A DNA stretch of 41,772 bases. It comes from a virus. Lineage: Duplodnaviria; Caudoviricetes. Shown piece after piece: positions 208 to 41,772 of the stretch (position 1 is its first letter; every line of letters begins with the position of its first letter). The notes under the pieces were generated by a model, which did no database searches, was not told where the DNA came from, and saw nothing but the letters and a program-made list of their open reading frames with translations. The DNA lies in IMG/VR virus record IMGVR_UViG_3300032225_002083, positions 1 to 41,772 of that record. One strand, 5' to 3'. The translations under genes and the position numbers were made by a program.

Positions 208-212
208 CTTAC

Positions 213-238
213 AAAAGACACAGAAATGTGTCTTTTTT
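213..238. terminator. Bidirectional intrinsic terminator between convergent clpS and terL
   Basis: AAAAGACACA-GAAA-TGTGTCTTTT hairpin with a GAAA loop, flanked by A and T tracts. Confidence 0.8.
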
Positions 239-2385: not shown

Positions 2386-2404
2386 ATTTTAGGAAAAGAT
2401 AATT

Positions 2405-2418
2405 TTTAATATATATTG
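2405..2418. promoter_or_regulatory. Putative late-promoter motif, near-palindromic, serving the divergent terL/terS pair
   Basis: TTTAATATATATTG gives TTTAATATATA on + and CAATATATA on -. The same motif recurs before many genes. Confidence 0.5.
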
Positions 2419-2434
2419 TAAAAAACCGCCTTCT

Positions 2435-5700: not shown

Positions 5701-5724
5701 TTTTGTAGTGGTTAATTTGTTATA

Positions 5725-5756
5725 CAAATATAAGGATAAGTTTTCTATTTGTCAAA
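5725..5756 (-). promoter_or_regulatory. Bacteroidota primary-sigma promoter (proximal)
   Basis: Minus strand reads TTTG-acaaatagaaaacttatcct (20 nt)-TATATTTG, i.e. -33 TTTG and -7 TAnnTTTG. Confidence 0.8.
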
Positions 5757-19517: not shown

Positions 19518-22500
19518 ATGTCAAATCACAAGAACTTACTATTTTTCAATAAAGAAGGAGATAATTTAAATTTTAACTATAGTGACGCAAATGATAGATT
19601 TGAAGGAACTATTCTTTTCCACGAAAACTCAAACGATACATTTAAGACTGCTGGTCTATATACATTAGAAAGAATTCCTTCTTTTGAATTTGAATATCCA
19701 GGTGAGATGACATTGAATAAATTTCAATTATTCAATGAATTTGGATTTGATTTTTATGCAGGTAACTATACTACACAATCTATTACTAAAATAGAACCGA
19801 TTAATAATGATCCTGGTTTTTATTCAAAATGGATATATGGTACTCTTTTAGACAAGTCTTTTCCAGTTGGAACGATTATTAGATTTGACTCACCACTATT
19901 AGAATTCACCAACCTTTCACAAACATATACAGTTGTAGGTACAAAAAAAGGCGCCATTATGATTATATCATCTGTTGATAATTCAACATTTGAAACTAAC
20001 TTTTATAATCAATACATATATGATACTAATTATGTAGGCAAATCTATATCAGGTGTAAATGCTATTGGTGTTTATAATTATATAAACGGATTATATCAAA
20101 ACAACTTATCAACTTGGAATGAGCCAAATTTCTATGATAAATTATATAAGAAAAAGAAATTAAATGTTATTAACAGCAAAAATAATAATAGCTCATTTAC
20201 TGTTAAAGAAGAAGAAATAACTGATACTAAATTTTTTGAATATTATACTTCAACATCTGATTTATCTACAAACATTGATCTAATAATAGAAGTATCAACT
20301 AAGACAGATTTGCCAAAAATATATGATGGCTCATTAACATTACAATATTCACCTGCGACATTTTCAAAACCTGAGTTAAATAGAATATCATTTGGTAGTT
20401 TAGCACCAGGTGTTTTAAAGCCGGGGACTGAGTTTAAGATAATTGGATCAAACAATAATCAAAACTTTTTTACAGTTGCTACTATTCCAACATTTAATGG
20501 AAACTCTCAGCAAACTTTTTATGCTACACAATCTCAAGTTTTATATAATAATAAAATTTATGAATGTATTCAAGCTTATACGCAAAGTTTTGCAAATTCG
20601 TCTACACAATTTATAACACCTAAAAATAGTACAACATATTGGACAGATATAATTTCACACATATTAGTTGATCAACATATAACATCTGAGTCTTTATCAA
20701 GTGCTCAATTGTATTTAACAACAGATAAATTATATTTTCAACAAGGTTGGACTCAGAGCAATGAAGTGACATTAGCTTCGGCGGCTCAAAAATATGAAAG
20801 TGATATAAAATCATTTAATGTTGAACTATACTATGAGAATAGTAAACTTAAAGCAGACTTAATGTATCCATCTAAGTATGTTGAAGTTAATTTTTATCAA
20901 GGTTCAATTGGAACAACATACTCAGTTAGTCATGTAAAAGAAACATATGAGAGACTTATACAAGTAGAAGAATCAGTAACAAAAGAATTAAATTATAATT
21001 TTTCATCTAACTTTTCACTGAATATTGTATTTACGGATTTAGATGAGTATGGTTTTAAAGTTAAATTAAATAAACAAGTATTTGAAGAAGAAATAGCTTG
21101 GATATATAGTGGTGCTTCACCAGATATGCAAAGAACTATTGATAGAACTTTAAGAGCTTGGTTAACAAGAAACTATGTAAGTCTTCAAAAGTTAGGTATT
21201 GTAGCAGAGTTACAATATGTTGGATCTTTTACTTCACCTTTTTATAACTCAATTAAATTAAGAACTGACTATCCAAACGTAGAGTTTAATTTAAATGAAG
21301 TTTTAGTTGGAACAACAGCCAACTATTATATTGAACACTCAAGAATTTTATTTAATGATATGGGTAGTTATCTATCATTTACAATAAACGGAGATACATA
21401 TGACCAAACAACAATTTATTTACCATCATCACAATATCCCGATATACCAGCCACTTTATCGGCTTGGGTAAACGAACATAGAGATTACTTAAACAACTAC
21501 GGAATTTTAGTATCAAGTATTAATAACTTATTAAAATTTGATGTAAAAAGAACTGATAGAAGATTAGATTATACAATAAGTACAGGTAAAAGTAATCTAC
21601 CAGGTATAAGTGATTATATTATAACTAAGAAAATTAAAGGAAATTTAGGTGTCTTAATAGCATCTAATGAAGTAAATTTATCATCAACCGCAACCGGTAC
21701 TTACTCATTTGAAGATGCTGGTTTTGCGACGGGTATGGCGTTCTCAGTAAATAACACTTTTCATACTTGGAACAATCAAGAGTATAATATAACTCATCTT
21801 GATCCAGGTGTTATGAATTTAAGTTATCAAGGTCCTTTCTGGGCTACAAATAATGAACTTTGTAACTCATCACCATTTATCACTTTAGCATTTGAGGTTG
21901 GATTTGGTCAAACGGGTTGTGGACCAATAGTTGGACCAACAGGAGGTAGTGCTTCTGGTGGACCATTTAATGTTAGTCAATTTAGTTCTGCATTTAGTTT
22001 AACCTATAATTTAAATAGCTATAATGTAAATACTTACACATTATCATCATTGAGTTCTAATAATTTAGTTGATATAATATATGTTCAGTTATCAAATTCA
22101 ATTTACGCATTTGGTGACGGTTTAACTGTATTAGACTCATACTTAGGTAATGAGATGGCAAGTATTACACTACCAGGAAATACTCAAAGTATAGCTATGA
22201 GATTTAACGGGATAAATAATTATTTATATTGTTTATCAAAAAATAAAGTGTATGTAGTTGATCCTTTATTAAATACTATTGTTACTGGGTGGCCTCTAAG
22301 TAACAATGCCAAAGATATCCAAATAAACACCGCAAATGGTGATATTTATATCTCATATAGTAATGTAGCCAGAGTTGAAATATACAATTCAAATAATAGT
22401 TTATCACAAACTCTAACAACATCATCTACTAGTTTCCCAGTAGATGCTACATCAACAGGAACTATGGTGTTTAATGAATTTGAAAGTAAAATGTATATTA

Positions 22501-25349
22501 TAACTAACTCAAACACGAGTTCTATTTTAAGGGTTTTAGGTTCAACAAGATCGATACAGTCAACATTTGGTATACCAGGCGCCACAGGTTCTATTTTCTA
22601 TGAGCCAGTTAATGAGGCTGTTTATGTATATGGTTCAGCATCTTTATGGAAAATAGATAACAGTATTAGTGTTGCTATTCCAAATGTATTAACATCTGGA
22701 TTTGAAGATATTATTTATAATAATCTATCAGGTGATGTGAATATATCTGACTCATCTACATCATTCAAATCTTTAGATTTAACAAACAATAACGTAGTAG
22801 CTGATGTCTCGGTTGGTAACTACGGTTATTTAGCATTAAATCAATTTGATGGCGCTGTTTATTTATCATCAAGATCTTCTAATGTAATACAAGTTATTAA
22901 TCCAGTAAACGGTAATGTTGTTCATACAGAATCTTTATCAGCTGGTTCAGACAGAATCATATATAATCCAGATAGAAAATCTATTTGGGTTATACAACCA
23001 TCTATAAACTCTGTATTAGAGGTTGAAGTAACACTAAATAGTGTAATTACACCAGAAGTTATAAACTCTCAAATAGCCGAGGATAATTTATATGGAACTT
23101 TGCACCCAGACTATGTACCACATATTGACTTATGGTTAAAAACTAAAGAATATTTAAGAAAACCAAGAGAAAATTTCAAAAATGATGTACCGGTAAGTTA
23201 TTACTTTAGATGGTATTCAGATGATGTACCTGAGTTTTTCATATATGATTTTTCAGGAACTCAATTACCAACAACAGGTAGTTATTCATATACTGGATCA
23301 AAACCATTACCTACTGTAGTATTAAACAATAAGCCAAATAAAGACTTAACTAAGTTAGATGCACCAGAATATCAACAAACTATTTTTGGAACAGTATCTT
23401 ATACATTAAGTTATATTGATGATGACACAGATATTTCAACTAAACCAGAGCCTTTAGAACTATTCTTAGGATTTAGATCAGATGAAGAAGGTGCTTTAAG
23501 ATCTATTTTACAACTTTATAAAAAAGAAGATATATCTTTAACATTTGAATCAACATCAACAAATTATTCAGTAGCTTCATTTGAAACTCTTGATGTATAT
23601 GGACCCGATAAAAGAGGTCTTATAAAGTTGAATACTAATTCTCCATATGATTTTACATCAAATGGTCTAAAAGAAGGCCAAATTATTGCTATTTATATAA
23701 AAGATACAACAAATAAGAAAAAACAATACATTTCTTCAAACAACGGAACAATTGTTAAAATAAGAAATGTTTTCTATAAGAGTATTATTGTAGATTTTTT
23801 AGGAAATGATGATTATCTATTTCAAGAAAGTACAGTTATAACAGATTATCCAACAACTGGAGATACAACTTATTGTAGATTTGATATTAAAGTAATTGAT
23901 AGAGAGATTGGTAGATTCATGACATATGGTCAAACCGAAATTGAAGATATCAGATTTAAAACCGAATTAGGAAATGTTGGTAAATTAATAGCACCTAATG
24001 AAGTTTTCATATTCAAAGAATATGATGTATTAGAAGGTGGTATTGATTGGACTTATCTTAACAAAAAGAGAAAAGAGATGTTGATGATGAAACACTTGAT
24101 ATATCCTTATATCGGTGCTTATAAATCAATTATTAATGCTATTAACTTCTTTGGTTATAATGATTTACAATTAAATGAATATTATAAAAATATAAATCCA
24201 CAATCTGAGAAATTTTTAAAACTATTCAAACAAGAAATTCCTGATATATTTGACAACACAGTTGAAGGCTGGACTGAAAGTGATTTTATTACTAACAATT
24301 TTCCTAATAATGACTATGATGCTACAAATATGTTTAATTTAACATATAATATTACTGACAAAGATGGTAATATTGTTTTAAATTATTCAATAGATGAGAT
24401 AATTATTAAATTACAAGGTCTTAAATACTGGTTGAAGAGAAATATTATTCCTTTAACTCATAAGATTCTTGATATTACAGGTAAGGCATATTTTAATGAT
24501 CAGACTCAAATACAACACACATCATATGATGTTCAGATATTTAATATTAAACAAAATATGACACCTATTTCATTTAAATTAAATGAAGCTTATCTAATGC
24601 CTATTAATAGCGGGTCAACTGTTTATAACTGTGTGATTGACTTTTATACAATATTAGATAAAATAGGTGCTGATAAGAATCCAACTGGTTTAACACCACC
24701 GCCTAAACCATTCAACGGTGTTAATATAGATTTACCTGATTATTTTGATATAACAGTAAGAACTTATAAAACATATAAAGAATGGTATCCATTTACTACT
24801 TATAATAAAGGTGATAAAATAAGTTACTATGGTAAAATATATGAGTCTCAAATTGATAGTAATAAAATTCATAATCCAAGAAAATATGAAAATATAGCTT
24901 CTTGGAAAGGCGGTGCTTCATATAGCGTTACAAGTACGGTTGAATATCTTAGAGATGTTTTTGTTTATAGTGGTTTAGGAACAGCCTCAACAGCTACAAG
25001 TTCAACACCACCAAATGTTGATGTTCAAAACTGGTTAAAAATAACTGAATGGAAAGAAATTAACTACGAACCAGTTCAAACTTTTAAAGAATTTAGACAA
25101 GTTCCTAAGATGACAACTCAATCAATAACATCTATGTTACCACCACCAAATCCTATATTACCTTTTAATTTTACAATTGATTCTAATATAGATCCATTCA
25201 TTGTTATTGAAGTAACAACTGATAATGGTTATGGTTTAATCTATAGAGATAAAAAGAACTATGAGATAAGAGGTCTTAAAGACTTGAGAGAACCCACATC
25301 ATATATTGATTTGATAGGTCCATTTCAACCAATTACTCCAGTTTATTAA
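19518..25349 (+). CDS. Very large virion structural protein, probable baseplate wedge component with beta-propeller and CBM5/12-like modules
   Basis: 1943 aa, beta-rich and rich in S/T/N/Y. YVTN-like repeats (YVVDP..N..V, IQVINP..GNVV, IYNPDRKSIWV). YIGAYKSIINAINFFGY resembles the baseplate wedge GTxxxI motif. W...TY..GD.I.Y.GKIY modules near the C-terminus. Confidence 0.6.
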   Translation: MSNHKNLLFFNKEGDNLNFNYSDANDRFEGTILFHENSNDTFKTAGLYTLERIPSFEFEYPGEMTLNKFQLFNEFGFDFYAGNYTTQSITKIEPINNDPGFYSKWIYGTLLDKSFPVGTIIRFDSPLLEFTNLSQTYTVVGTKKGAIMIISSVDNSTFETNFYNQYIYDTNYVGKSISGVNAIGVYNYINGLYQNNLSTWNEPNFYDKLYKKKKLNVINSKNNNSSFTVKEEEITDTKFFEYYTSTSDLSTNIDLIIEVSTKTDLPKIYDGSLTLQYSPATFSKPELNRISFGSLAPGVLKPGTEFKIIGSNNNQNFFTVATIPTFNGNSQQTFYATQSQVLYNNKIYECIQAYTQSFANSSTQFITPKNSTTYWTDIISHILVDQHITSESLSSAQLYLTTDKLYFQQGWTQSNEVTLASAAQKYESDIKSFNVELYYENSKLKADLMYPSKYVEVNFYQGSIGTTYSVSHVKETYERLIQVEESVTKELNYNFSSNFSLNIVFTDLDEYGFKVKLNKQVFEEEIAWIYSGASPDMQRTIDRTLRAWLTRNYVSLQKLGIVAELQYVGSFTSPFYNSIKLRTDYPNVEFNLNEVLVGTTANYYIEHSRILFNDMGSYLSFTINGDTYDQTTIYLPSSQYPDIPATLSAWVNEHRDYLNNYGILVSSINNLLKFDVKRTDRRLDYTISTGKSNLPGISDYIITKKIKGNLGVLIASNEVNLSSTATGTYSFEDAGFATGMAFSVNNTFHTWNNQEYNITHLDPGVMNLSYQGPFWATNNELCNSSPFITLAFEVGFGQTGCGPIVGPTGGSASGGPFNVSQFSSAFSLTYNLNSYNVNTYTLSSLSSNNLVDIIYVQLSNSIYAFGDGLTVLDSYLGNEMASITLPGNTQSIAMRFNGINNYLYCLSKNKVYVVDPLLNTIVTGWPLSNNAKDIQINTANGDIYISYSNVARVEIYNSNNSLSQTLTTSSTSFPVDATSTGTMVFNEFESKMYIITNSNTSSILRVLGSTRSIQSTFGIPGATGSIFYEPVNEAVYVYGSASLWKIDNSISVAIPNVLTSGFEDIIYNNLSGDVNISDSSTSFKSLDLTNNNVVADVSVGNYGYLALNQFDGAVYLSSRSSNVIQVINPVNGNVVHTESLSAGSDRIIYNPDRKSIWVIQPSINSVLEVEVTLNSVITPEVINSQIAEDNLYGTLHPDYVPHIDLWLKTKEYLRKPRENFKNDVPVSYYFRWYSDDVPEFFIYDFSGTQLPTTGSYSYTGSKPLPTVVLNNKPNKDLTKLDAPEYQQTIFGTVSYTLSYIDDDTDISTKPEPLELFLGFRSDEEGALRSILQLYKKEDISLTFESTSTNYSVASFETLDVYGPDKRGLIKLNTNSPYDFTSNGLKEGQIIAIYIKDTTNKKKQYISSNNGTIVKIRNVFYKSIIVDFLGNDDYLFQESTVITDYPTTGDTTYCRFDIKVIDREIGRFMTYGQTEIEDIRFKTELGNVGKLIAPNEVFIFKEYDVLEGGIDWTYLNKKRKEMLMMKHLIYPYIGAYKSIINAINFFGYNDLQLNEYYKNINPQSEKFLKLFKQEIPDIFDNTVEGWTESDFITNNFPNNDYDATNMFNLTYNITDKDGNIVLNYSIDEIIIKLQGLKYWLKRNIIPLTHKILDITGKAYFNDQTQIQHTSYDVQIFNIKQNMTPISFKLNEAYLMPINSGSTVYNCVIDFYTILDKIGADKNPTGLTPPPKPFNGVNIDLPDYFDITVRTYKTYKEWYPFTTYNKGDKISYYGKIYESQIDSNKIHNPRKYENIASWKGGASYSVTSTVEYLRDVFVYSGLGTASTATSSTPPNVDVQNWLKITEWKEINYEPVQTFKEFRQVPKMTTQSITSMLPPPNPILPFNFTIDSNIDPFIVIEVTTDNGYGLIYRDKKNYEIRGLKDLREPTSYIDLIGPFQPITPVY

Positions 25350-27047: not shown

Positions 27048-30000
27048 TTAATCATCACCTTTAGCACCTATATCTTCATTTTTCTTATCACCAGGTTTCT
27101 GAAGATGTTCATCAATACTTTTTGTATAACCAGTCATCTCCACCATTACTTTATAGATTTTATCAAGTTTTTGCAACTGAGTTTCACCTTTAGCATCTTT
27201 AAGCTGTTCATCTTTCTTAGACTGACTACCAACAGGACCACCACCTGGACCACCAACATTAACTCCAGGTCTTTTACCAAGCTCAGCACCTTGAACTTTT
27301 AGTAAATTAGCAAAAACGCCACTTCTGGATTCAATAACTCTCAACATGTTACTAAACATAGTTGAATCCATAGCTGATAATAAAGCTAAATTACCTGTCA
27401 ATCTTGTAAATGAATTAACTTTTACAGCATCCATACCATTTAAGGCTGTACTGAAGTTTCTAATAGCTCTAGCCAATCTATCATAAGCACCAGCAATCTT
27501 CACCATACCATTTGCGATATTTTCAACTGGATCCATACCTAATAAAGATTTAATAGAAGATGTTTTATATTTACTAAGTTTATCAACTAAGGTCATATAA
27601 TCAATAATATTACTACTAAGTTTTTTAACAAAATTTGGATCTATTGTAGTTTTAAAGAATCTTTCACCTCTTGCTAAAATTATAGCAGATCTAACAATAC
27701 CAGTAGATATTGAAGTAATACCATATAACATATTATCAATAACATCTTCACCCGAAGTAAACCAACCAGTATCCTTACTTAAAGCATTAAAGATAGGACT
27801 AAAAGCACCTAAGGCACCACCAACACCATCTGCCCATTCTTTAGATGGTACTCTACTAACATCAAAAACACCAGTATTATCAGGTGAGTTAAAGAAGGTA
27901 GCAGCATCAACTATACCTCTAGATATAGTCATAATGGCTTTTGCCATATCTTCAACTGAAACACCACTTGAAAACCAACCTGAGTTATCAGCTAAAACTT
28001 GATAAACAGGAGCAAAAGCACCAATAGCTTTACCAACACCTTCTGCCCATTCTTTTTTAGGACCACCAATGAAAGCCGCTTTTGCTTCTGGTCCGTTAAA
28101 GAAATTAGCCGCGTCAACTATACCCATAGAGATAGTTTTAATAGCTTTTGCAAAGTCATCAGGACCAACACCACCTCCACCAAATAAGCTAAGTATATTA
28201 TTAGCCATTAACATTCCATATATTGGTGAGAAAGCACCTAAAGCCAATGATATACCTTCAGCCCAATCTTTAGTAGGACCACCGGTATAACTACCTTTTT
28301 TCAAAACAAATGAAGTATCAACTATTGTTTGTGCGACCATTAATACAGCTTCACCACCAGCCGCAAGTGCAATAGCACCTAAACCGAAACTACCAACAAT
28401 CATACCACCAAGTAAAACCATACCTGCGGTGAATGTTGTTAAAGCCAAAGCCGTAGACATTGCCCACCAAACAGGAGGACCACCTGTATATTTACCACTA
28501 GCTAATATATGAGAAGCGGCACTAATTGTAGCTGAAATACCCAATACTGCAACAGCACCTGCTAATAATGCGAGAGCTCCAACACCTGACATAGATATTA
28601 AACCTAAAGCAAGAACAGCTGGTATGAAAGCTATCATTGATAAGCCTACACCCAGTACCCATGATGCTTTAGGATAGTTTTTATAACTACCAATTGATAA
28701 TAATAAAGATGCTGCCATTATGGCAGTAGCCATAATAACTATACCAAGACCACCTGTAAGTAAATTTTTAATACCAACTTTGCCTAAAATCACCATTGCT
28801 GGTGTAAAAGCGGTAGTAACAAGAGCTAAAATAAGACCTAAAGCCAATATTTTAAGTAAAGTCACAAACTTAATATCAGCTGTTTTTTCTAAAATATGAG
28901 AAGATAACATAATAGCCAATGATATAGCAACCATCACGAGAGGTATTAAAAATACCTTACCTTTACCCAATATCTTTTCAATTAAAACTATTCCAATAGC
29001 CAACTTATCCATAAAATAAGACATAACAGCAAATAAAATCACTATACCTAAAGCTGTTAAGAACTGCCATATACCAATAGGCATAACAAAACTTAATATC
29101 CAAGAAGAAGCAGTTATTGCTCCTGCAATACCAACAAGAACTAAAAGAAGATCTGTTGCTTTAACACCGGTTTTCTTAAATGCAACTACACCAATTGCTA
29201 TTTTCTCTAAATTGAATGATATCGCTAAGAACATCAATGATATCATAATACCAGTAACAGCCTGCCAGAATCCCATCGGTTTTATATAACTTAATATCCA
29301 AGAAGAAGCAGTTATTGCGGCAGCTATACCAACAAGAACTAAAAGAAGATCTGTTGTTTTAATATTTGCCAACTTAAAGGCGGCAACACCCATTGCAATT
29401 TTATGAAAGCTAAAACCAATAACAGCAAACATACCAGCAATTAAGATAGCAGTAACTGATTGACCAAGTGACATAGGTCTTATAAATGATAATATCCAAG
29501 ATGAGAAGGTTATTGCAGTGGCTATAGCAACCAATGAAGTAACAAGTTTGACCGGACTAACTCTCAATTTATCAAATGCGGCAACACCAATGAAAATATT
29601 TTCCATATGGTTGGCTATAACATAGAACATACCAGCTATTAATATACCAGTGACTGTTTGCATAAAACCAATTGGTTTAATCATACTAAGCACCCAAGAT
29701 GATGCGGTAACAGCAAGCGCCATAAGAACCATAGCAGCAGAAGCCAATGCGGCTTGTTTCAATGATAAATTTAGTTTGGCTACTTTTTCAAAAGCAACAG
29801 ATATAAGCATAATAGCCAAACCAAGACTTATAACAGATAAAAAGTCTATTTTACCAACTAATTTAAACGCTAAACCAATGGCTAAGACAGCTACAGCTAT
29901 TAACAATATTGTACCTAAACCTTTCTTTAAATTACTTTCTTGTTTCTTATCACCACCAATTTCTTCCATTGGAGTTTTTTTCTTATCTGCCGAACTTTTC

Positions 30001-30221
30001 TTAGACATTTCTAAGATAGTTTTTTGACTTTTAAGAATTTCTTGAGTGTCGGCTTTAATAGATTTTATACCAGCATCAATCTCTTTAAGATTCTTAGATA
30101 AGTCACCACTTTCTAAAGCGGCGCCGGTAGAACTTGTTGATTGTTTCTTAGCTAAAATATCAGCTATATCTTCAAGAGCTACAGATAAATTATTTAATGC
30201 GTCAAGTAATTTCTTATCCAT
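27048..30221 (-). CDS. Tape-measure-like protein with long hydrophobic helical repeats
   Basis: 1057 aa, Ala/Gly/Leu/Ile-rich. At least four 66-aa repeats (T(A/F)SSW(I/V)LS anchor, 198-nt period), three WAxGxxxAxGAFxP repeats and charged termini. Confidence 0.65.
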   Translation of the reverse strand: MDKKLLDALNNLSVALEDIADILAKKQSTSSTGAALESGDLSKNLKEIDAGIKSIKADTQEILKSQKTILEMSKKSSADKKKTPMEEIGGDKKQESNLKKGLGTILLIAVAVLAIGLAFKLVGKIDFLSVISLGLAIMLISVAFEKVAKLNLSLKQAALASAAMVLMALAVTASSWVLSMIKPIGFMQTVTGILIAGMFYVIANHMENIFIGVAAFDKLRVSPVKLVTSLVAIATAITFSSWILSFIRPMSLGQSVTAILIAGMFAVIGFSFHKIAMGVAAFKLANIKTTDLLLVLVGIAAAITASSWILSYIKPMGFWQAVTGIMISLMFLAISFNLEKIAIGVVAFKKTGVKATDLLLVLVGIAGAITASSWILSFVMPIGIWQFLTALGIVILFAVMSYFMDKLAIGIVLIEKILGKGKVFLIPLVMVAISLAIMLSSHILEKTADIKFVTLLKILALGLILALVTTAFTPAMVILGKVGIKNLLTGGLGIVIMATAIMAASLLLSIGSYKNYPKASWVLGVGLSMIAFIPAVLALGLISMSGVGALALLAGAVAVLGISATISAASHILASGKYTGGPPVWWAMSTALALTTFTAGMVLLGGMIVGSFGLGAIALAAGGEAVLMVAQTIVDTSFVLKKGSYTGGPTKDWAEGISLALGAFSPIYGMLMANNILSLFGGGGVGPDDFAKAIKTISMGIVDAANFFNGPEAKAAFIGGPKKEWAEGVGKAIGAFAPVYQVLADNSGWFSSGVSVEDMAKAIMTISRGIVDAATFFNSPDNTGVFDVSRVPSKEWADGVGGALGAFSPIFNALSKDTGWFTSGEDVIDNMLYGITSISTGIVRSAIILARGERFFKTTIDPNFVKKLSSNIIDYMTLVDKLSKYKTSSIKSLLGMDPVENIANGMVKIAGAYDRLARAIRNFSTALNGMDAVKVNSFTRLTGNLALLSAMDSTMFSNMLRVIESRSGVFANLLKVQGAELGKRPGVNVGGPGGGPVGSQSKKDEQLKDAKGETQLQKLDKIYKVMVEMTGYTKSIDEHLQKPGDKKNEDIGAKGDD
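29091..29720 (-). repeat. 198-nt (66-aa) degenerate tandem repeats within the tape-measure-like gene
   Basis: Anchor ACTTAATATCCAAGAAGAAGCAGTTATTGC at 29091 and 29289, with degenerate copies near 29487 and 29685. Confidence 0.8.
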
Positions 30222-34671: not shown

Positions 34672-36861
34672 ATGCAAGAAAAAATAAAGATATTGTTTTT
34701 AGCACCACATCTTTCTACAGGTGGTATGCCTTCATTCCTTTTAAAAAGAATACAAGCTTTAATTGATAATGAAGATTTTGAGTTATTCGTAGTAGAATAT
34801 GCTGATATTGGAGGATGGGCTTATGTGGTTCAAAAGAACGAAATCAAAAGAATAATAAAACCTGAAAACTTTACAACATTATACGAAGATAAATCTATTT
34901 TAATGGATATAATCCGTGATAATAAAATAGACATTGTACACGCAGATGAGATTTTAGAAGGATTTGATCATTCAAATAAAATACCAGATGTTATGTTAAA
35001 CGAATTATATGACAACAACAGAACCTGGAAGATGATTGAAACTTGTCATAATGTTTGGTTTAATCCAGCAACATCTAAAAGATTTAATCCTGATGGTTAT
35101 GCCTTTTGTACACCTTGGCATAAATCAAAAACATTTAGTATGATGCCATCATATAGTGAAGTGTTACAGTTTCCTATTGAGAATAAAGTACCAACAGACG
35201 ATGAAAAGCTAGAAGCTAAAATATCATTAGGGATGGATCCTAATAAAAAACATGTTATTAATGTTGGTTTATGGACATCAGGTAAAAATCAAAAAGAAGG
35301 TGTTGAAGTTGCTAAATCTTTAGAAGAATCTAACCCTGAAATACAATTTCATTTTATTGGAAATCAAGCTTCTAATTTTGAAGACTATTGGGGACCTGTT
35401 ATGGAAAATCTACCTTCAAATGTAACTATTTGGGGTGAAAGAGCTGATGTTGATACTTTTATGAAAGCGGCTGATTTGTTTATGTTTAATTCAACTTGGG
35501 AATGTAATCCTTTAGTTTTAAGAGAGGCTACTTCATATGGTTTGAAAATCTTAACTAGAAATCTAGAACAATATATGGATATGTTTACTCCTTATATAAC
35601 AGAAATAAATGGAGATGTAATATCAACTAAATATAAATTATTAGCTCTTCTTTATTCTGATAGAAAATATACAGTAGAAGACCAATTAGATTTGTTCAAA
35701 AATGGTTATGCTAATTTCTATAAAAAGGTTAACAGAATGCCAATAATGGAACAATCTAGATTTATACCTAAACCCATTATCAATCAGAACTTTATATCAA
35801 ATCCATTTATTGAAATAAATGGCTCATCTGAAAGTAAATTCAAAATTGAATTTTATGACGAAATTGGAAAATGTCATTATTCTGAAATTCTACCAATAAA
35901 TCACTGGGTTAAATTAAACCGTGAATATTTCACCAAGTGGACAACAAAAGTTTGGGAAGGTGGATCATTATTCTATGAATACACTTTAGACTTGAAAAAT
36001 AAAAGAGTTTTTATTGTTTTAGAAAGTAGTTCATTAGGTGACACTTTGGCTTGGGTTCCTTTTATTAGAGAATTTAAAGATAAACACGAATGTGAATTAA
36101 TAGTTTCAACATTCATGAATAATCTTTTTAGAGAAACTTATCCAGATATTGAATTTGTAGAACCAGGAAGTGTAGTGAATAATATTTATGCTATGTATAA
36201 ACTAGGTTGGTTTTATAAAGATGGTAAATATGACGAAGCAAGAAATCCAAACGATTTCAAACTACAACCTTTACAAAAAACCGCTTCAGATATTTTAGGA
36301 TTAGAATATAAAGAAACAAAATCTTTATTAAAAATTCCTAATGTTGAAAAGAAAAAGAAAGTTGGAATTGGTATACATTCAACATGTCAGGCTAAATATT
36401 GGAATAATGCAAATGGCTGGCAAGAAGTAGTTGATTATCTAAACTCTCTTGGATATGAAGTTGTTCTTTATTCAAAAGAAAATGATGGGTATATGGGTAA
36501 CTTCCAACCACAAGGTATAACTAAATTTGAAGCTGGTTCAATTGAAAGGCTAATAGAAGAAATGACTTCTTGTGAGTTCTTTGTTGGTTTAGGTTCTGGT
36601 TTAAGTTGGTTATCTTGGACAATTGGTCTTCCAACAGTTCTTATATCAGGGTTTAGCGAAGAATATAGTGAAACAGTATCTAATACATATCGTGTTATAA
36701 ATAAAAATGTTTGTACAGGTTGTTTTAATAGACATAGATTAGATGGTGGTGATTGGAACTGGTGTCCAGATCATAAAAATACTGATAGAATGTTTGAATG
36801 TACTAAACAAATCACTTCTCAAATGGTGATTGAAAAAATAAATCAAGTTATAAATGGATAA
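34672..36861 (+). CDS. GT4-family glycosyltransferase fused to an Aah/TibC-like (BAHT) protein O-heptosyltransferase
   Basis: Likely start ATG 34672. N-half GT-B/GT4: PHLSTGGMP, NVGLWTSGKNQ, ADLFMFNSTWECNPLVLREA. C-half matches recalled TibC/Aah motifs: SLGDTLAW (catalytic Asp), STCQAKYWNNxxGW, GLxSGLSWLxW, LISGFS and the iron finger CTGC...WCPDHKNTDRMFECT. Confidence 0.88.
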   Translation: MQEKIKILFLAPHLSTGGMPSFLLKRIQALIDNEDFELFVVEYADIGGWAYVVQKNEIKRIIKPENFTTLYEDKSILMDIIRDNKIDIVHADEILEGFDHSNKIPDVMLNELYDNNRTWKMIETCHNVWFNPATSKRFNPDGYAFCTPWHKSKTFSMMPSYSEVLQFPIENKVPTDDEKLEAKISLGMDPNKKHVINVGLWTSGKNQKEGVEVAKSLEESNPEIQFHFIGNQASNFEDYWGPVMENLPSNVTIWGERADVDTFMKAADLFMFNSTWECNPLVLREATSYGLKILTRNLEQYMDMFTPYITEINGDVISTKYKLLALLYSDRKYTVEDQLDLFKNGYANFYKKVNRMPIMEQSRFIPKPIINQNFISNPFIEINGSSESKFKIEFYDEIGKCHYSEILPINHWVKLNREYFTKWTTKVWEGGSLFYEYTLDLKNKRVFIVLESSSLGDTLAWVPFIREFKDKHECELIVSTFMNNLFRETYPDIEFVEPGSVVNNIYAMYKLGWFYKDGKYDEARNPNDFKLQPLQKTASDILGLEYKETKSLLKIPNVEKKKKVGIGIHSTCQAKYWNNANGWQEVVDYLNSLGYEVVLYSKENDGYMGNFQPQGITKFEAGSIERLIEEMTSCEFFVGLGSGLSWLSWTIGLPTVLISGFSEEYSETVSNTYRVINKNVCTGCFNRHRLDGGDWNWCPDHKNTDRMFECTKQITSQMVIEKINQVING

Positions 36862-37240
36862 ACCAGTAGTTATAAACGCTCTTCATACAGAAGGATGTTG
36901 TGTTCCAAAAGGATGGGGCAAAGAAGTTATTATAGAAAACAATGAACTTTACTGTGGTAAGTTACTTTGTTTTAATAAAGGTGCTAAGTTTTCAATGCAC
37001 TATCATATGATTAAAGATGAAACTTGGTATGTTGATAAAGGAGAATTCTTATATCGATGGATAGATACTGAAACCGCTGATGTTATAGAACAAAAATTAG
37101 TTGTTGGTGATACTGTAAGACAAAGACCTGGTCAACCTCATCAGTTAGAGGCTTTAACAGATGGTGTTATCTTTGAGGTATCAACAACACATTCAGATTC
37201 AGATTCATATAGAGTATGGAAGGGAGATTCTCAGAAATAA
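36854..37240 (+). CDS. Cupin-fold sugar isomerase (type II phosphomannose isomerase / D-lyxose isomerase-like)
   Basis: VPKGWGKE, FSMHYHMIKDETWYV, PGQPHQL, EVST..SDSDSYR; overlaps both neighbours. Confidence 0.75.
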   Translation: MDKPVVINALHTEGCCVPKGWGKEVIIENNELYCGKLLCFNKGAKFSMHYHMIKDETWYVDKGEFLYRWIDTETADVIEQKLVVGDTVRQRPGQPHQLEALTDGVIFEVSTTHSDSDSYRVWKGDSQK

Positions 37241-37620
37241 AGGTTTGGGTTAATGGAACCTTTGATGTTTTACACATAGGTCATATTAAACTATTAGAAT
37301 TTGCTAATCAGTTTGGTGAAGTACGAGTTGGAATTGACACAGATGAAAGAGTAAAACAATTCAAAGGAGAATTAAGACCTATAAATAATATTAAAGATAG
37401 AATTTATTTTATGAATTCTATTAAATATGTAAATAGTTCTGTTAGTTTTTCAACTGACGAAGAACTTTGTAATAGAATAAAAGAGTGGGAAGCTGATATT
37501 ATTATAGTAGGAAATGACTATAAAGATAAAAAGGTAATAGGTTCTCACTTAGTTAAAGAGGTTATATTCTTTGATAAAATAGATGGTTATTCATCTACAA
37601 AAATTATAGAAAGTAAATGA
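37216..37620 (+). CDS. rfaE2: Heptose-1-phosphate nucleotidyltransferase (HldE/RfaE domain II, HldC-like)
   Basis: NGTFDVLHIGH (HIGH), VGIDTDERVKQFKGELRPIN, GNDY and GYSSTKII; adjacent to the RfaE kinase half. Confidence 0.8.
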   Translation: MEGRFSEIKVWVNGTFDVLHIGHIKLLEFANQFGEVRVGIDTDERVKQFKGELRPINNIKDRIYFMNSIKYVNSSVSFSTDEELCNRIKEWEADIIIVGNDYKDKKVIGSHLVKEVIFFDKIDGYSSTKIIESK

Positions 37621-38348
37621 TTAAGATTTTAGTAGTAGGAGAAAAGTGTATTGATAGATTCATGTATTGTGATGTTTCAAGATTCAGTCCAGAAGCACCA
37701 GTACCAGTATTAAACCCTATGGAAATAGTTGAAAATGATGGAATGGCTGGTAATGTTGTTAGAAACTTAAAAGCTATGAATAAAGATGTGATTATAGAAC
37801 ATTGGCACCAGGATGAGATTATTACAAAAACAAGATTTGTTGAAAAGAAAAGTAATCATATGTTTTTAAGATTAGATGAAGGTGAGACTAATATTTCTAA
37901 ATTAGAACTTAAATCAAATTTACTATCTGAATATCACATAGTAATTGTAAGTGACTACTATAAAGGCTTTATTAGCGATAATGATCTTATTAAAATTGGA
38001 AAGAACTCTAAGATATCTATCTTAGATTCAAAAAGAAAACTTACTAAAGAAATAGTAAGTAGTTTTACTTTTGTAAAATTGAATGAAAAAGAATCTTTAC
38101 AAAACTCTGAGTTATTAGAATGTAATAATATATTAATAACTTTAGGTAGTAGAGGTACAAAGTTCAAAGATGAAATATATCCAAGTCCCAATCCTCAAGA
38201 AACTATTGATGTTAGTGGTGCTGGTGACACCTTTACCTCAGCATTTATCTTAAAGTACATACAAACAGATGATATTAAATCATCTATAGTTTGGGCAAAT
38301 GAAATGGCTTCTATAGTTGTCTCAAAAAGAGGTGTAGCAACGCCTTAA
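37617..38348 (+). CDS. rfaE1: Heptose-7-phosphate kinase (HldE/RfaE domain I, PfkB family, HldA-like)
   Basis: RFSPEAPVPV, GMAGNV, TKTRF, LRLD, SDYYKG, DSK, ITLGSRG, DVSGAGDTF and VVSKRG are RfaE-kinase motifs. Confidence 0.9.
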   Translation: MIKILVVGEKCIDRFMYCDVSRFSPEAPVPVLNPMEIVENDGMAGNVVRNLKAMNKDVIIEHWHQDEIITKTRFVEKKSNHMFLRLDEGETNISKLELKSNLLSEYHIVIVSDYYKGFISDNDLIKIGKNSKISILDSKRKLTKEIVSSFTFVKLNEKESLQNSELLECNNILITLGSRGTKFKDEIYPSPNPQETIDVSGAGDTFTSAFILKYIQTDDIKSSIVWANEMASIVVSKRGVATP

Positions 38349-38368
38349 ATAGAAATATATTTAAAATG

Positions 38369-38399
38369 AAAAGACCCGTTAATTACAACGGGTCTTTTT
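38369..38399. terminator. Bidirectional intrinsic terminator between the heptose operon and the fibre gene
   Basis: AAAAGACCCGTT-AATTAC-AACGGGTCTTTTT. Confidence 0.85.
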
Positions 38400-41300
38400 T
38401 TATTTATTTAGATTTTTAATCTCTTCTTTTAATTGGTCTATTTGAATTTGTTGTTCTTTAATAGCTTCAATTAAGACAGATACAATGTTTGGATAAGCAA
38501 CAGCTTTTGTACCATCTGGGTTATCAAATACCACTTCTGGGAAAGCTTGAGCCATTTCTTGAGCAATAACCCCAGCATGAACTCTTTCTTTATCTTCGTG
38601 GTCATTTCTCGTAAAGGTAACACCTCTCATTTGTTTTACTTTCTCAATCGCATTTGTAATTGTTTTTACATTATCTTTTACTGATTGATCTGAGTATGCT
38701 ATAATGTTACCAGCAGCATAAATATCACCAGAACCACCACCAATAGTACCAACTTGTAAAGTATAAGTTGGAGCATTACCAGCATTTACACTCAATCGAG
38801 AAGTTGTATTGTCCCAATACAACTGATTCGCATCATCAACAGTCGTACCAGTTGATGGATAATAAGCTACATAACTAGCGGTACCACTATTTACAGTACC
38901 ACTACCACCACCACCACCACTACTTGGTGTAACCCATTGAGTATTATAGTTAGTCGAGTTAATTTTAGCCAATACTTGACCCGAAGTACCACCCACAGGA
39001 ACACCAGCACCTGAAGTACCGGATGAGCCTGAAGTACCTGATGAGCCACTTGATCCGGATGTACCTGATGAACCACTTGATCCGGATGTGCCTGATGAAC
39101 CACTTGATCCGGATGTGCCTGATGAACCACTTGATCCAGACGATCCACTTGATCCAGAACTTCCAGTTGGTCCACTTACTCCACTTGCTCCTACTATAAC
39201 AATTCCTATACAAGGACTAGTAAATGTAGAAATACCTGAACCGCCTAAATATGTTAGTCTTGTAAAATAAGCATCAGTATTATTTGGAGGTGTTGTTACA
39301 TAATCCAATAATGTATATGAATAGTAGTTAACTTTACTACTATCAGATTTCTCAAATATTCTTATTTGATGTCCTAATGCGCCATTGTTTGCAACAGCAA
39401 TTAATTTATCTAAAACTGTATTACCACCTGCTGATTGCAAAGAATTGCCTAATCCATCAGTACCGGAAATCCATAAATTACCATTTGAGGCGGTTAAAGA
39501 AGATAAGCTATAAACTATTCTTCCTGAACTAGCACCGGAACTACTTAGAACGGTAGAATTATAAGATATTGTGTATCCACCAACCACACCTTGTGATCCA
39601 CTTGTTCCAGACGAACCAGATGTACCTGATGAACCACTTGAGCCTGAGCTACCACTTGATCCCGAGCTACCACTTGATCCCGAGCTACCTGAAGATCCAC
39701 TTGTTCCAGATGAACCATCAACACCAGAATAACCTGATGTACCACTTGATCCGGAAGACCCGGAAGACCCGGATGTACCACTTGAACCGGCTGATCCTCT
39801 TGTTCCTGATGTACCTGATGAACCACTTGATCCAGATGTACCTGAGCTACCGGATGTACCTGATGATCCTGAAGATCCACTTGAACCGGATGTACCTGAA
39901 CTACCGGATGTACCTGATGAACCACTTGATCCAGATGTACCTGAGCTACCACTTGATCCTGAAAGACCTGATGTACCGGAAGCACCACTAACACCAGATG
40001 TACCACTTGATCCGGATGTTCCTGATGAGCCACTTGTACCAGCAGATCCGCTTGATCCTGATGTACCACTTGAGCCTGAGCTACCTGAAGTACCACTTGA
40101 GCCTGAACTACCTGATGAACCACTTGAGCCTGAGCTACCGGATGAGCCGCTTGTTCCACTTGATCCTGAACTTCCACTTGTACCTGATGATCCTGAAGAA
40201 CCATTCACACCACTTGAGCCTGAACTACCACTTGAGCCGCTTGTTCCAGCAGATCCGCTTGATCCTGATGTACCACTTGATCCTGATGATCCAGAAACTC
40301 CACTTGAGCCTGAACTACCTGATGTACCAGAAGATCCTGAAGAACCACTTGAGCCTGAACTACCTGATGTACCAGAAGATCCTGAAGACCCAGATGATCC
40401 ACTTGATCCTGATGTACCACTTGATCCTGATGATCCAGAAACTCCACTTGAGCCTGAACTACCTGATGTACCAGAAGATCCTGAAGAACCACTCGATCCT
40501 GAACTACCTGATGTACCAGAAGATCCTGAAGACCCAGATGATCCACTTGATCCTGATGTTCCTGAAGACCCAGATGATCCGCTTACACCACTAGATCCAG
40601 ATGAACCACTTGTTCCAGCAGATCCTGAAGATCCACTACTTCCGCTCGATCCAGATGAACCACTTGTACCACTTGAGCCTGATGAGCCGCTTACACCGCT
40701 AGATCCGGATGATCCACTAGATCCACTTGTTCCTGAGGAACCGCTTGTTCCACTTGATCCTGAGCTTCCACTTGTACCTGAGCTACCAGATGTACCTGAT
40801 GATCCTGAAGAACCACTAGATCCACTTGAGCCTGAACTTCCACTTGTACCTGATGATCCTGAAGAACCACTAGATCCACTTGAGCCTGAACTTCCACTTG
40901 TACCTGATGATCCGCTTGTGCCACTTGATCCTGATGAACCAGAAACTCCACTTGATCCTGAACTACCCGATGTTCCAGATGAACCACTTGAGCCTGATGT
41001 ACCGCTTGATCCTGATGAGCCACTTGAACCTGAACTTCCACTTGTCCCTGAGCTACCAGATGTACCCGATGAGCCTGAAGATCCACTAACACCACTTGAT
41101 CCTGAAGAACCACTTGATCCTGAACTACCAGATGTACCTGATGATCCGCTTGTACCGCTTGATCCTGATGATCCAGAAACTCCACTCGATCCTGAGCTAC
41201 CTGATGTACCTGATGATCCGCTTGTACCGCTTGATCCTGATGATCCACTTGATCCTGACGTTCCACTTGATCCTGAACTACCGGATGATCCTGAAGATCC

Positions 41301-41771
41301 ACTTGATCCTGATGTTCCACTTGATCCTGAACTACCAGATGATCCTGAAGATCCACTTGATCCATGAGATCCTGATGTTCCACTTGATCCACTTGATCCT
41401 GAGCTACCTGATGTACCAGCAGAACCACTTGTACCCGAAGATCCTGAAGATCCACTTGTACCAGCAGATCCACTTGAACCGGATGTACCACTCGATCCAC
41501 TTGTACCTGAAGATCCTGAAGATCCACTACTTCCACTTGATCCTGAGCTACCCGATGTTCCAGCAGAGCCACTTGTTCCAGCAGATCCTGAAGATCCACT
41601 ACTTCCACTTGATCCTGAGCTACCCGATGTTCCTGAAGATCCACTTGTACCAGCAGATCCTGAAGATCCACTACTTCCACTTGATCCTGAGCTACCCGAT
41701 GTTCCAGCAGAGCCACTTGTTCCAGCAGATCCTGAAGATCCACTACTTCCACTCGATCCTGAACTACCCGA
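38400..41771 (-). CDS. Giant Gly-Ser/Thr-repeat (collagen-like) tail fibre with C-terminal Peptidase_S74 intramolecular chaperone, 5'-truncated by the window edge
   Basis: The GTG at 40208 is an internal Val. The Gly codon phase is the same at the points checked (40208, 41363, 41768) and I saw no in-frame stop, giving at least 1123 aa. C-terminus AYSDQSVKDNV...GVTF...AGVIAQE...FPEVV...LIEAIKEQQ matches S74. GGTSGQVLAK...YNTQW is a common fibre linker. Confidence 0.88.
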   Translation of the reverse strand, partial: SGSSGSSGSSGSSGSAGTSGSAGTSGSSGSSGSSGSSGSAGTSGSSGTSGSSGSSGSSGSSGSAGTSGSAGTSGSSGSSGSSGSSGSSGTSGSSGTSGSSGSAGTSGSSGSSGTSGSAGTSGSSGSSGSSGTSGSHGSSGSSGSSGSSGSSGTSGSSGSSGSSGSSGSSGTSGSSGSSGSSGTSGSSGTSGSSGSSGVSGSSGSSGTSGSSGTSGSSGSSGSSGSSGVSGSSGSSGTSGSSGTSGSSGSSGSSGSSGTSGSSGSSGTSGSSGSSGVSGSSGSSGTSGSSGTSGSSGSSGSSGSSGSSGTSGSSGSSGSSGSSGSSGTSGSSGTSGSSGSSGTSGSSGTSGSSGSSGSSGVSGSSGSSGTSGSSGSSGSSGSSGSAGTSGSSGSSGVSGSSGSSGTSGSSGSSGSSGSSGTSGSSGSSGSSGSSGTSGSSGSSGVSGSSGSSGTSGSSGSSGSSGSSGTSGSSGSSGSSGSSGTSGSSGSSGVSGSSGSSGTSGSSGSAGTSGSSGSSGSSGVNGSSGSSGTSGSSGSSGTSGSSGSSGSSGSSGSSGSSGTSGSSGSSGTSGSSGSAGTSGSSGTSGSSGTSGVSGASGTSGLSGSSGSSGTSGSSGSSGTSGSSGTSGSSGSSGSSGTSGSSGTSGSSGSSGTSGTRGSAGSSGTSGSSGSSGSSGTSGYSGVDGSSGTSGSSGSSGSSGSSGSSGSSGSSGSSGTSGSSGTSGSQGVVGGYTISYNSTVLSSSGASSGRIVYSLSSLTASNGNLWISGTDGLGNSLQSAGGNTVLDKLIAVANNGALGHQIRIFEKSDSSKVNYYSYTLLDYVTTPPNNTDAYFTRLTYLGGSGISTFTSPCIGIVIVGASGVSGPTGSSGSSGSSGSSGSSGTSGSSGSSGTSGSSGSSGTSGSSGSSGTSGSSGTSGAGVPVGGTSGQVLAKINSTNYNTQWVTPSSGGGGGSGTVNSGTASYVAYYPSTGTTVDDANQLYWDNTTSRLSVNAGNAPTYTLQVGTIGGGSGDIYAAGNIIAYSDQSVKDNVKTITNAIEKVKQMRGVTFTRNDHEDKERVHAGVIAQEMAQAFPEVVFDNPDGTKAVAYPNIVSVLIEAIKEQQIQIDQLKEEIKNLNK
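39005..39192 (-). repeat. Second, shorter Gly-(Ser/Thr)-Ser triplet run in the fibre
   Basis: GASGVSGPTGSSGSS...GTSGAG, separated from the long run by a globular segment of about 130 aa. Confidence 0.9.
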
Positions 41772-41772
41772 T
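39593..41772 (-). repeat. About 2.2 kb of 9-nt-period Gly-(Ser/Thr)-Ser repeats with nested 54-, 72- and 144-nt duplications
   Basis: Gly every third codon. 144-nt unit at 40258 and 40402; 54-nt unit at 40791 and 40845; 72-nt unit at 41511, 41583, 41655 and 41727. Confidence 0.92.

Follow-up and report, generated by a model that had tools for sequence, protein, structure and literature searches.

A TibC/Aah-family transferase gene facing a serine-packed tail-fibre gene suggests fibre heptosylation in a very large uncultured phage

Introduction

The closest described counterparts of the locus reported here are TibC–TibA and Aah–AIDA-I (TIGR04414; PDB 4RAP/4RB4; PMC4358343), in which a transferase of the BAHT family adjoins the gene for its Ser-rich partner. 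BAHTs have so far been described as adhesin-modifying enzymes in a few pathogens. The characterised members act on protein Ser, TibC modifies Ser and not Thr, and the adenine contact Arg286 is required in TibC (PMC4358343). The phage locus shares with these systems the family HMM, the fold, the catalytic Asp, the Thr and Lys phosphate contacts, the Trp, the four-Cys iron finger, a predicted hydrophobic thumb, and the adjoining Ser-rich partner gene. It differs in that the enzyme is viral, fused to a GT4 domain, without Arg286, placed beyond the classic clade, and accompanied by donor genes in its own operon. The partners differ as well: that of the phage is a Gly-X-Ser tail fibre with an S74 chaperone, whereas TibA and AIDA-I are autotransporter beta-helices. 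TibC recognises a beta-helix loop, an architecture unlike a Gly-X-Y repeat, which is a point against fibre heptosylation.

Three other kinds of system bear comparison. In mycobacteriophages, decoration of virion proteins by glycosyltransferases has been shown (Freeman et al. 2023, cited in PMC12619734), whereas here it is predicted; the glycans there are on the capsid and tail-tube C-termini, whereas here a BAHT-family enzyme would serve hundreds of fibre repeat serines. Gly-X-Y repeats with a hydroxy residue at Y are shared by Bacillus BclA, vent-worm cuticle collagen, and (Gly-Pro-Thr)10, the last of which is converted from coil to triple helix by glycosylation; these have Pro at X and use Thr, while the phage fibre has no Pro, is nearly chargeless, and has Ser at Y (PMC11923368). 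The cyanophages P-SSM2, S-CAM1, and S-SM2 share the split RfaE-I and RfaE-II and the same cupin (31-49% identity); they have an extra epimerase and HAD-like protein, whereas the operon here holds a candidate heptose consumer. No BAHT match was found in these three cyanophages, and the presence of the heptose cassette there is a second point against fibre heptosylation. Viral NDP-heptose enzymes were reported by Tang et al. 2024 (via PMC11461863 and PMC11573728), and their discoverers call the question of why viruses make manno-heptose unsolved (PMC11573728). Our literature search found no description of a phage transferase-fibre system of the present kind.

Results and discussion

Locus layout

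The window analysed here is the whole stretch of 41,772 nt, positions 1 to 41,772 of IMGVR_UViG_3300032225_002083, and represents about 7% of the genome of its source, a very large uncultured phage; no tRNAs were found within it. Four overlapping + strand ORFs encode a GT4-BAHT fusion (34672-36861, 729 aa from ATG), a cupin (36854-37240, 128 aa), an RfaE-II-like heptose-1-phosphate nucleotidyltransferase (37216-37620), and a short phage form of an RfaE-I-like heptose-7-phosphate kinase (37617-38348). In that order, this operon converges on a - strand tail-fibre gene (38400..41771), the 5' end of which is cut by the contig end. The gap holds a bidirectional intrinsic-terminator-like hairpin (38368-38399; 13 bp, T runs on both strands, -17.7 kcal/mol, z -5.84) that 0 of 200 shuffles matched in folding. 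The ORF coordinates and the both-strand hairpin bear out the preliminary description, which had four overlapping + strand genes converging through a terminator on a fibre.

Together, a TibC relative, heptose genes, and a facing Ser-packed fibre gene make a heptose-coated fibre likely. Our preferred reading, on sequence grounds, is that the TibC/Aah-family enzyme probably attaches heptose to serines of the phage's own Gly-(Ser/Thr)-Ser tail fibre; that it O-glycosylates the fibre with a sugar of any kind is still more likely.

The transferase

The BAHT half of the fusion (35833..36861) scores 277.5 bits against TIGR04414 (curated cut-off 200) and matches TibC 4RAP at E 1.6e-58. The AlphaFold model (pLDDT 91.5) has the features of the TibC fold, an N-terminal beta-barrel and a GT-B core, and Foldseek aligns it with 4RAP at E 6e-34, TMt 0.85, and 33% identity. 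The preliminary description had called this half a BAHT and proposed an HMM search and a structural comparison with TibC as checks; both were run, and both agree with it. The Asp of the LGD motif at codon 36040-36042 (residue 457), which it had proposed to mutate, is the predicted catalytic residue, aligning with the TibC catalytic base Asp110. The TibC donor contacts Thr226, Lys230, and Trp305 are kept as Thr571, Lys575, and Trp646, as are the cysteines of the iron finger (Cys681/684/698/710; iron binding predicted). None of these eight positions (D110, T226, K230, W305, and the four Cys) varies among the 44 phage enzymes left after dereplication. As to the beta-hairpin thumb and dodecamer ring of TibC, alignment of the single chain pairs the thumb residues Tyr607-Met608 with TibC Phe265-Val266, and Phe708 with Phe368. 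Judged by sequence and predicted fold, the C-terminal half of ORF 34672-36861 is a GT4-fused member of the TibC/Aah family.

The GT4 (GT-B) half (34672..35736) matches PF00534 (E 1e-12), has an E-x7-E motif at residue 277, and yields a model resembling GT4 folds of the BshA/MshA/WaaG type. At most related loci, the GT4 is either fused to the BAHT or encoded directly upstream. The fused GT4 is predicted to be a second, chain-extending transferase.

The donor pocket is where the phage enzymes depart from TibC. The adenine contact Arg286 is Leu627 here, and the P300 position is Gly641. All 25 classic BAHTs examined keep this Arg, while the 44 phage rows mostly have Val (23), Leu (12), Ala (4), or Ile (3), and neighbouring pocket residues are also unlike those of classic BAHTs. 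This loss lowers certainty about the nucleotide, not about descent; because Arg286 is replaced, heptose on ADP is a presumptive donor. The same substitutions favour an alternative that we consider unlikely, in which the fibre serines are glycosylated with another nucleotide-sugar, or with heptose on another nucleotide, and the RfaE-like genes act towards some other product, being only neighbours within one sugar island. Against it stands the invariance of Trp305, Lys230, and Thr226, which are heptose- and phosphate-contact residues.

Heptose-nucleotide genes

The donor genes bear on that alternative from both sides. For the RfaE-II-like ORF (phrog_7878, E 5e-36), the best NCBIfam match is TIGR02199 (89.9 bits, under the cut-off of 181.5), followed among single-domain rivals by TagD (58.3 bits); it has no Arg at the position of the STTR5 motif (PMC11461863). 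The RfaE-I-like ORF best matches TIGR02198 (124 bits, under the cut-off of 345), and its best solved relative is the heptose-7-phosphate kinase 4E84 (HldA kinase), with SPEAPVPV common to both. The four-gene operon includes neither GmhA nor GmhB. Among 19 large BAHT records, eight have a strong kinase match, six a strong nucleotidyltransferase match, and 11, including the cultured phage Mel-JY01 (PP395634), are without a strong kinase. A GmhA-like SIS_2 protein is present in one of the 19 and in none of the eight with a kinase, and a GmhB-type phosphatase (TIGR01656) in none of five records tested. The cassette also varies among close relatives: L001 is without the cupin, L004, L527, and L528 are without RfaE-II, and the nearest near-complete relative, G163, has lost the nucleotidyltransferase. 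Donor synthesis by BAHT phages is partial and labile.

The earlier proposal that the phage makes its own nucleotide-heptose is therefore supported only in part: RfaE-like kinase and nucleotidyltransferase genes are in the operon, at scores below cut-off, whereas the searches for GmhA in kinase-bearing records and for a GmhB-type phosphatase found none, and G163 has lost the nucleotidyltransferase. It had also suggested testing whether BAHT and rfaE1/2 co-occur; a strong kinase accompanies BAHT in 8/19 and a strong nucleotidyltransferase in 6/19 large BAHT phages. The sub-threshold RfaE halves, the 11 phages without a strong kinase, and the variable cassette are all consistent with another donor. 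In contrast, two separate phage groups have the kinase and nucleotidyltransferase genes next to BAHT, and the two genes share its operon both here and in the large L040 group, which argues for heptose. So does the HldE kinase, found over the cut-off in five of five bacteria with a repeat-linked enzyme, although this is weak support, because HldE kinase is common in Proteobacteria.

The fibre

The 1123-aa open frame of the fibre gene contains 463 Ser, 97 Thr, and 302 Gly, in line with the several hundred Ser claimed before. It matches tail-fibre PHROGs (E 6e-34) and has a Peptidase_S74 chaperone at its C-terminal end (residues 1027-1081). Two in-register Gly-X-Y runs, of 244 (39573..41768) and 21 (39003..39191) triplets on the - strand, add up to 265; the earlier figure of roughly 260 fits this total, but the Gly-(S/T)-S pattern to which it referred accounts for 233. 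The main run (GSS 157, GTS 58) is uninterrupted, with no Pro and two charged residues among 732. Over both runs, Y is Ser in 92% and Thr in 0%, and X is Ser in 69% and Thr in 24%; Ser at Y is encoded by both TCN and AGY codons. As a collagen-like repeat, the fibre has, in its primary sequence, Gly at every third residue, with no Pro and almost no charged stabilisers. Frames that overlap the repeat on the other strand or in a shifted register were rejected as shadow ORFs because only the GSS frame continues into the S74 domain.

BAHT and Gly-X-Ser repeats across phages and bacteria

A second alternative is that the products of the transferase and heptose genes alter the surface of the host, at the LPS core or on outer-membrane proteins, so as to exclude superinfecting phages or avoid grazers, with proximity to the fibre reflecting a shared variable island. 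Phage rfaE/glycosyltransferase islands near tail-fibre genes are usually read in this way (PMC7029224, PMC12801897), and a weak GT9 match of the BAHT half is consistent with it. The preliminary description had named the lack of any association between BAHT genes and Ser-rich fibres as a refutation of fibre heptosylation; the association was found. Of 60 viral contigs picked by GSS repeats, 19 have BAHT (17 over the cut-off), against 0 of 71 picked by GPQ collagen (Fisher p 6e-8, with contigs that are kin and a GPQ control that is not matched by lineage); among contigs of at least 30 kb, the counts are 15/35 and 0/28. Of ten contigs of at least 85 kb, seven have BAHT no more than 15 kb from the repeat by which they were selected, against 1.75 expected. 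The 41 of 60 GSS contigs without BAHT are mostly fragments, and of the 11 GSS contigs at least 90% complete, five have it. Conversely, when the enzymes are clustered at 70% identity, a Ser-rich Gly-X-Y run is present in the flank examined for 19 of the 26 clusters, and six of seven BAHT records at least 90% complete, searched whole, have a five-triplet G[ST][ST] match. Ser is favoured over Thr at Y in every one of the 23 phage loci counted.

Some relatives have BAHT and no nearby repeat, which counts against fibre heptosylation and favours the host-surface reading: none was found in the flanks of the close relatives L011/L013 and G174/G175. Also against fibre heptosylation, the repeat search matched nothing in the BAHT-bearing LR756504 (636 kb). 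In terminase relatives fetched as a lineage-matched comparison, 11 of 25 contigs >33 kb have BAHT (2/2 near-complete), and two of five BAHT genes in four records have a flanking Gly-X-Y run, with repeats counted in BAHT flanks only. One close-relative scan found the family in 296 viral stretches, and the transferase-fibre pair is present in Mel-JY01.

The association is also seen in bacterial members of the branch. In a quick tree with a midpoint root, the phage enzyme falls outside the classic BAHT clade (25 rows, SH-aLRT 100); given this kind of tree, we claim no direction of transfer. Bacterial loci beyond the classic clade have a Gly-X-Ser run within 6 kb in 23 of 37 cases, compared to 0 of 25 classic BAHT loci, and their chromosomal contexts are unrelated. 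In the two loci fully inspected, the run is in an adjacent signal-peptide protein. The recurrence of such runs in unrelated contexts, the absence of BAHT from the 71 GPQ contigs, and the action of characterised BAHTs on protein Ser (PMC4358343) argue against host-surface remodelling, which we regard as improbable. Modification of phage DNA (hypermodified bases) against restriction is very improbable: phage glycosyltransferases often modify DNA (PMC12619734), and some relatives' GT4 halves match the GT4-conflict family, but the locus is in a structural region, it is statistically tied to Ser repeats, and none of the four operon genes was recognised as coding for an enzyme that modifies bases.

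Potential mechanism and implications

Under the preferred reading, heptosylation of the fibre, the acceptor would be Ser at the Y position and the first sugar a D,D- or L,D-manno-heptose. The nucleotide-heptose donor would be made partly by the phage's RfaE-like kinase and nucleotidyltransferase, with the cupin standing in for GmhA on sedoheptulose-7-phosphate and the GmhB step left to a host phosphatase. The fused GT4 would then extend the glycan, and the GT2 and FkbM-type methylases of relatives may extend and cap it, giving a sugar coat that could stabilise or shield the fibre. More tentatively, a hitherto undescribed BAHT branch with a Gly-X-Ser substrate may be common to large phages of aquatic habitats and certain environmental bacteria. 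Heptose on Y-Ser would there take over from proline/hydroxyproline in stabilising a collagen triple helix that extends over hundreds of triplets, and the cupin would replace GmhA in the phage donor pathway; TibC/Aah would then be a specialised minority.

BAHT is common in large aquatic phages, where it is associated with a predicted substrate of another type than the adhesins of pathogens. Fibre heptosylation, if true, would be a widespread way of glycosylating virions in which enzyme, donor, and acceptor are all defined, and would offer an answer to why viruses make manno-heptose (PMC11573728). The fibre would then be a test, provided by nature, of how a collagen repeat with neither proline nor charge folds, and heptose on virions would bear on how the phages adsorb and how long they persist in water.

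The cupin

The cupin (PF07883, phrog_7851) is a separate lead. By its co-occurrence with heptose genes, and by that evidence alone, it may be a candidate non-orthologous sedoheptulose-7-phosphate isomerase that would act in place of GmhA. Its model (pLDDT 87.9) retrieves generic cupins with no single best class, matching oxalate decarboxylase, quercetinase, CapF, FdtA, D-lyxose isomerase, and archaeal phosphomannose isomerase about equally, and searching the PDB by sequence was no more informative. Gene context lends no support to "cysteine dioxygenase", the label of its PHROG. The "phosphoheptose isomerase" of P-SSM2 was rejected as counter-evidence, being a 114-aa HAD-like protein (weak Pfam matches); SIS_2 has no match in P-SSM2. 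Near 80 viral cupin loci, there is no GmhA-like SIS protein, while RfaE-I or RfaE-II is within 6 kb in 69 and BAHT alongside in only eight, the last count being a point against fibre heptosylation. In favour of heptose, 9/17 large cupin-selected contigs carry BAHT over the cut-off. Cupin presence tracks kinase presence.

Gene organization and phage context

The four + strand genes of the window overlap and run through a bidirectional hairpin toward a convergent − strand fibre gene, as claimed in the preliminary description, and this arrangement is real. The genes encode a GT4-BAHT fusion (34672-36861), a cupin (36854-37240), an RfaE-II-like nucleotidyltransferase (37216-37620), and an RfaE-I-like kinase (37617-38348). 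The fibre gene (38400-41771) is 5'-truncated; its product of 1123 aa includes 463 Ser and a C-terminal S74 chaperone. The roughly 260 Gly-(S/T)-S triplets initially reported agree with the count of Gly-X-Y triplets (244 plus 21 in register); only 233 are G[ST]S.

The window is an entire 41.8-kb viral contig, with an estimated completeness of ~7%, and domain or family matches identify genes for terminase, tail sheath, tail tube, and an SbcD-like protein. Since terminase relatives at 77-89% identity lie on contigs of up to 436-476 kb, the window is a fragment of a phage with a contractile tail and a very large genome. The tail-sheath protein (9116-12997) is unusually long (1293 aa), with family matches confined to beyond residue 790. 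A tape-measure-like protein of 1057 aa (27048-30221) has many hydrophobic repeats and no family match, and an unannotated ORF of 1943 aa (19518-25349) has a weak CBM_5_12 hit as its sole match. The DUF6576 domain at the end of another ORF (5209-5727) is a possible host clue.

A TibC-family transferase

Residues 388-726 of the fusion match TIGR04414 at 277.5 bits (cut-off 200), and this half aligns with the TibC sequence at E 1.6e-58. Its AlphaFold model (pLDDT 91.5) superimposes on TibC with a TM of 0.85, so HMM and structure comparisons both bear out the proposed BAHT/TibC identity of the C-terminal half. The family-defining residues, taken from excerpts of the TibC structure paper (PMC4358343), are kept in the window enzyme and in 44/44 phage enzymes (84 loci dereplicated at 90%): Asp110, Thr226, Lys230, Trp305, Phe368, and four iron cysteines. 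Arg286, described in the same excerpts as adenine-binding and required in TibC (PMC4358343), is Arg in all 25 classic BAHTs; the window enzyme has Leu there, and most phage enzymes have Val, Leu, Ala, or Ile. At position 300, which selects between D,D and L,D, the window enzyme has Gly. Judged from sequence and model, the window system descends from the same family and would work like TibC-TibA; however, it lacks the autotransporter partner and Arg286, two defining features whose absence sets it apart as a variant.

The N-terminal half belongs to the GT4 family. Related loci have a GT4 either within the BAHT protein or in the gene immediately before it, and FkbM-type methyltransferase or GT2 domains often accompany it, which suggests that these enzymes may extend and cap the glycan.

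Association of BAHT with Ser-rich repeats

Scanning a viral collection with the BAHT half recovered at least 296 viral stretches; 80 were fetched and three GenBank phages added, giving 83 loci. A Ser-rich Gly-X-Y run lies near the BAHT in 39 of these loci, and when the enzymes are clustered at 70% identity, 19 of the 26 clusters have one. The flanks covered extend to at most 10 kb, or 20 kb at the GenBank loci. Whole records were searched for 38 of 46 loci picked chiefly because no run was nearby, and 14 of the 38 contain a five-triplet match, including six of the seven records ≥90% complete. Conversely, among the matches listed, BAHT occurs in 19 of 60 contigs picked for GSS repeats (17 above cut-off; 66 chosen) versus 0 of 71 GPQ-collagen contigs (74 chosen; p 6e-8), and in 15/35 versus 0/28 at ≥30 kb, although these statistics ignore kinship among mutually related contigs and the GPQ control comes from other phage lineages. 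In seven of ten positive contigs ≥85 kb, the BAHT is ≤15 kb from the selected repeat (expected 1.75). The suggested link between BAHT and Ser-rich fibres across phages is supported. Counter-examples are L011/L013 and G174/G175, where no repeat was found in the BAHT flank, and LR756504, whose BAHT is divergent and whose 636 kb contain no repeat match.

LR756504 also has a GmhA-like SIS gene (L605:6072-6650) ~27 kb from its BAHT, with no kinase match in the record. Four fetched loci (L006, L010, L014, L015) contain fibre genes with 570-750 Gly-X-Ser triplets inside the fetched 10 kb, their frames open at the locus edge. In the L040 group, the gene before the BAHT-RfaE operon (L040:2-6916) encodes a large protein that resembles tail fibres and contains a Hint/intein domain, and longer records place the Gly-Ser-Ser fibre tens of kb away.

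The best independent argument for the repeat itself as acceptor comes from bacteria, where BAHTs also lie near Gly-X-Ser runs (61 loci from a scan of species genomes plus four plasmid loci). A quick tree covering 106 rows, from which two low-scoring split loci were excluded, unites the classic BAHTs of enterobacteria, Burkholderia, Acetobacteraceae, and Selenomonadaceae in one clade (25 rows, SH-aLRT 100), and the phage enzymes fall outside it with those of Methylobacter, Methylomicrobium, Polaromonas, Arenicellales, and others. A Ser-rich Gly-X-Y run lies within 6 kb in 23 of 37 non-classic bacterial rows, which probably include a few phage contigs in bins, versus 0 of 25 classic rows; some of the flanks are short. 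At two bacterial loci examined in full, the neighbouring gene encodes a small protein that has a signal peptide and a run of (GTS)n or (GTA/GTS)n. Altogether, it is likely that the TibC-family enzyme glycosylates the phage fibre, and we lean toward heptose as the sugar.

In methanotrophs, Polaromonas, and Arenicellales, the BAHT adjoins genes for small proteins that combine a signal peptide with (GTS)n or (GSS)n runs (L465:5031-5894, L473:7160-8041, and related loci); BAHT and repeat protein are a candidate bacterial O-glycosylation pair, probably not described before. Tandem BAHT pairs in Anaerovibrio, Selenomonadaceae, and related genomes have no Gly-X-Ser run nearby (L490, L495, L496, L505, L506, L508-L510, L512, L513, L517).

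Heptose donor and cupin

RfaE models are the best matches to the kinase and nucleotidyltransferase, both below cut-off, and the closest solved structure to the kinase is a heptose-7-phosphate kinase. PMC11461863 reports that viral enzymes of the pathway produce ADP-heptose and that viruses lack the phosphatase, and why viruses carry the pathway is called unsolved in a section of PMC11573728. Among 19 large BAHT records, eight have a strong kinase, six a strong nucleotidyltransferase, and six a strong cupin, all within the kinase-bearing eight; the single SIS/GmhA protein is outside them. The nearest near-complete relative encodes both a cupin and a kinase; no nucleotidyltransferase was found in it. 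This patchiness suggests that donor supply is optional and labile; most BAHT phages would rely on the host or another donor. The idea that the phage makes its own nucleotide-heptose is borne out in part.

The cupin accompanies RfaE genes in 69 of 80 loci, with GmhA in the flank of none of the 80, and cyanophage P-SSM2 encodes a nucleotidyltransferase, kinase, HAD-like protein, cupin, and epimerase with no SIS_2 match. Thus, from co-occurrence, the cupin (compare L522:8652-9333) is predicted to fill the isomerase slot of GmhA-less viral heptose cassettes. Cupins are known to isomerise ketoses to manno-aldoses, and a fold search returned ketose/manno-aldose-type isomerases among its matches, none singled out. 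We rejected the "phosphoheptose isomerase" label (phrog_1238) in P-SSM2, as the gene encodes a HAD-like protein of 114 aa that is probably a phosphatase.

Repeat composition and structure

Ser exceeds Thr at Y in all 23 phage loci tallied, mostly by a wide margin, and X accepts either. In the window repeat, Ser at Y is encoded by TCN as well as AGY codons; no Thr codon occurs at Y, and X has 58. TibC acts on Ser, not Thr (excerpts of PMC4358343). The repeat could alternatively form a polyglycine-II bundle or a flexible tether. A sugar-stabilised triple helix is plausible by analogy, because (Gly-Pro-Thr)10 passes from coil to triple helix upon glycosylation and, unlike other collagen-like proteins, which depend on Pro or salt bridges (both from portions of PMC11923368), the long Gly-X-Y run has neither (0 Pro, 2 charged residues).

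Relation to described systems

Full-text literature searches (subscription papers beyond reach) turned up no account of either a phage BAHT or a heptosylated fibre, consistent with the earlier statement that no experimental account of such a phage system was known. The nearest described systems include the reported glycosylation of mycobacteriophage virions. A large aquatic phage lineage has four core glycosyltransferases, with target unstated and neither heptose nor collagen mentioned in the main text (PMC12619734), and phage rfaE islands are interpreted as LPS modification in parts of PMC7029224 and PMC12801897.

Microcystis phage Mel-JY01 (PP395634) offers a cultured, testable isolate for the transferase-fibre pair. 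Its GT4-BAHT fusion (L081:4750-8430; 317 bits) is annotated "methyltransferase FkbM" and lies 1.7 kb beyond a frame on the + strand (2-3049) that has ~200 Ser/Thr-rich triplets and is largely annotated as opposite-strand hypotheticals. Kinase, nucleotidyltransferase, cupin, and SIS matches were not found in this phage. Another Mel-JY01 gene product is annotated as ribosomal protein S21, a protein typical of Bacteroidota phages, which conflicts with Microcystis as the recorded host.
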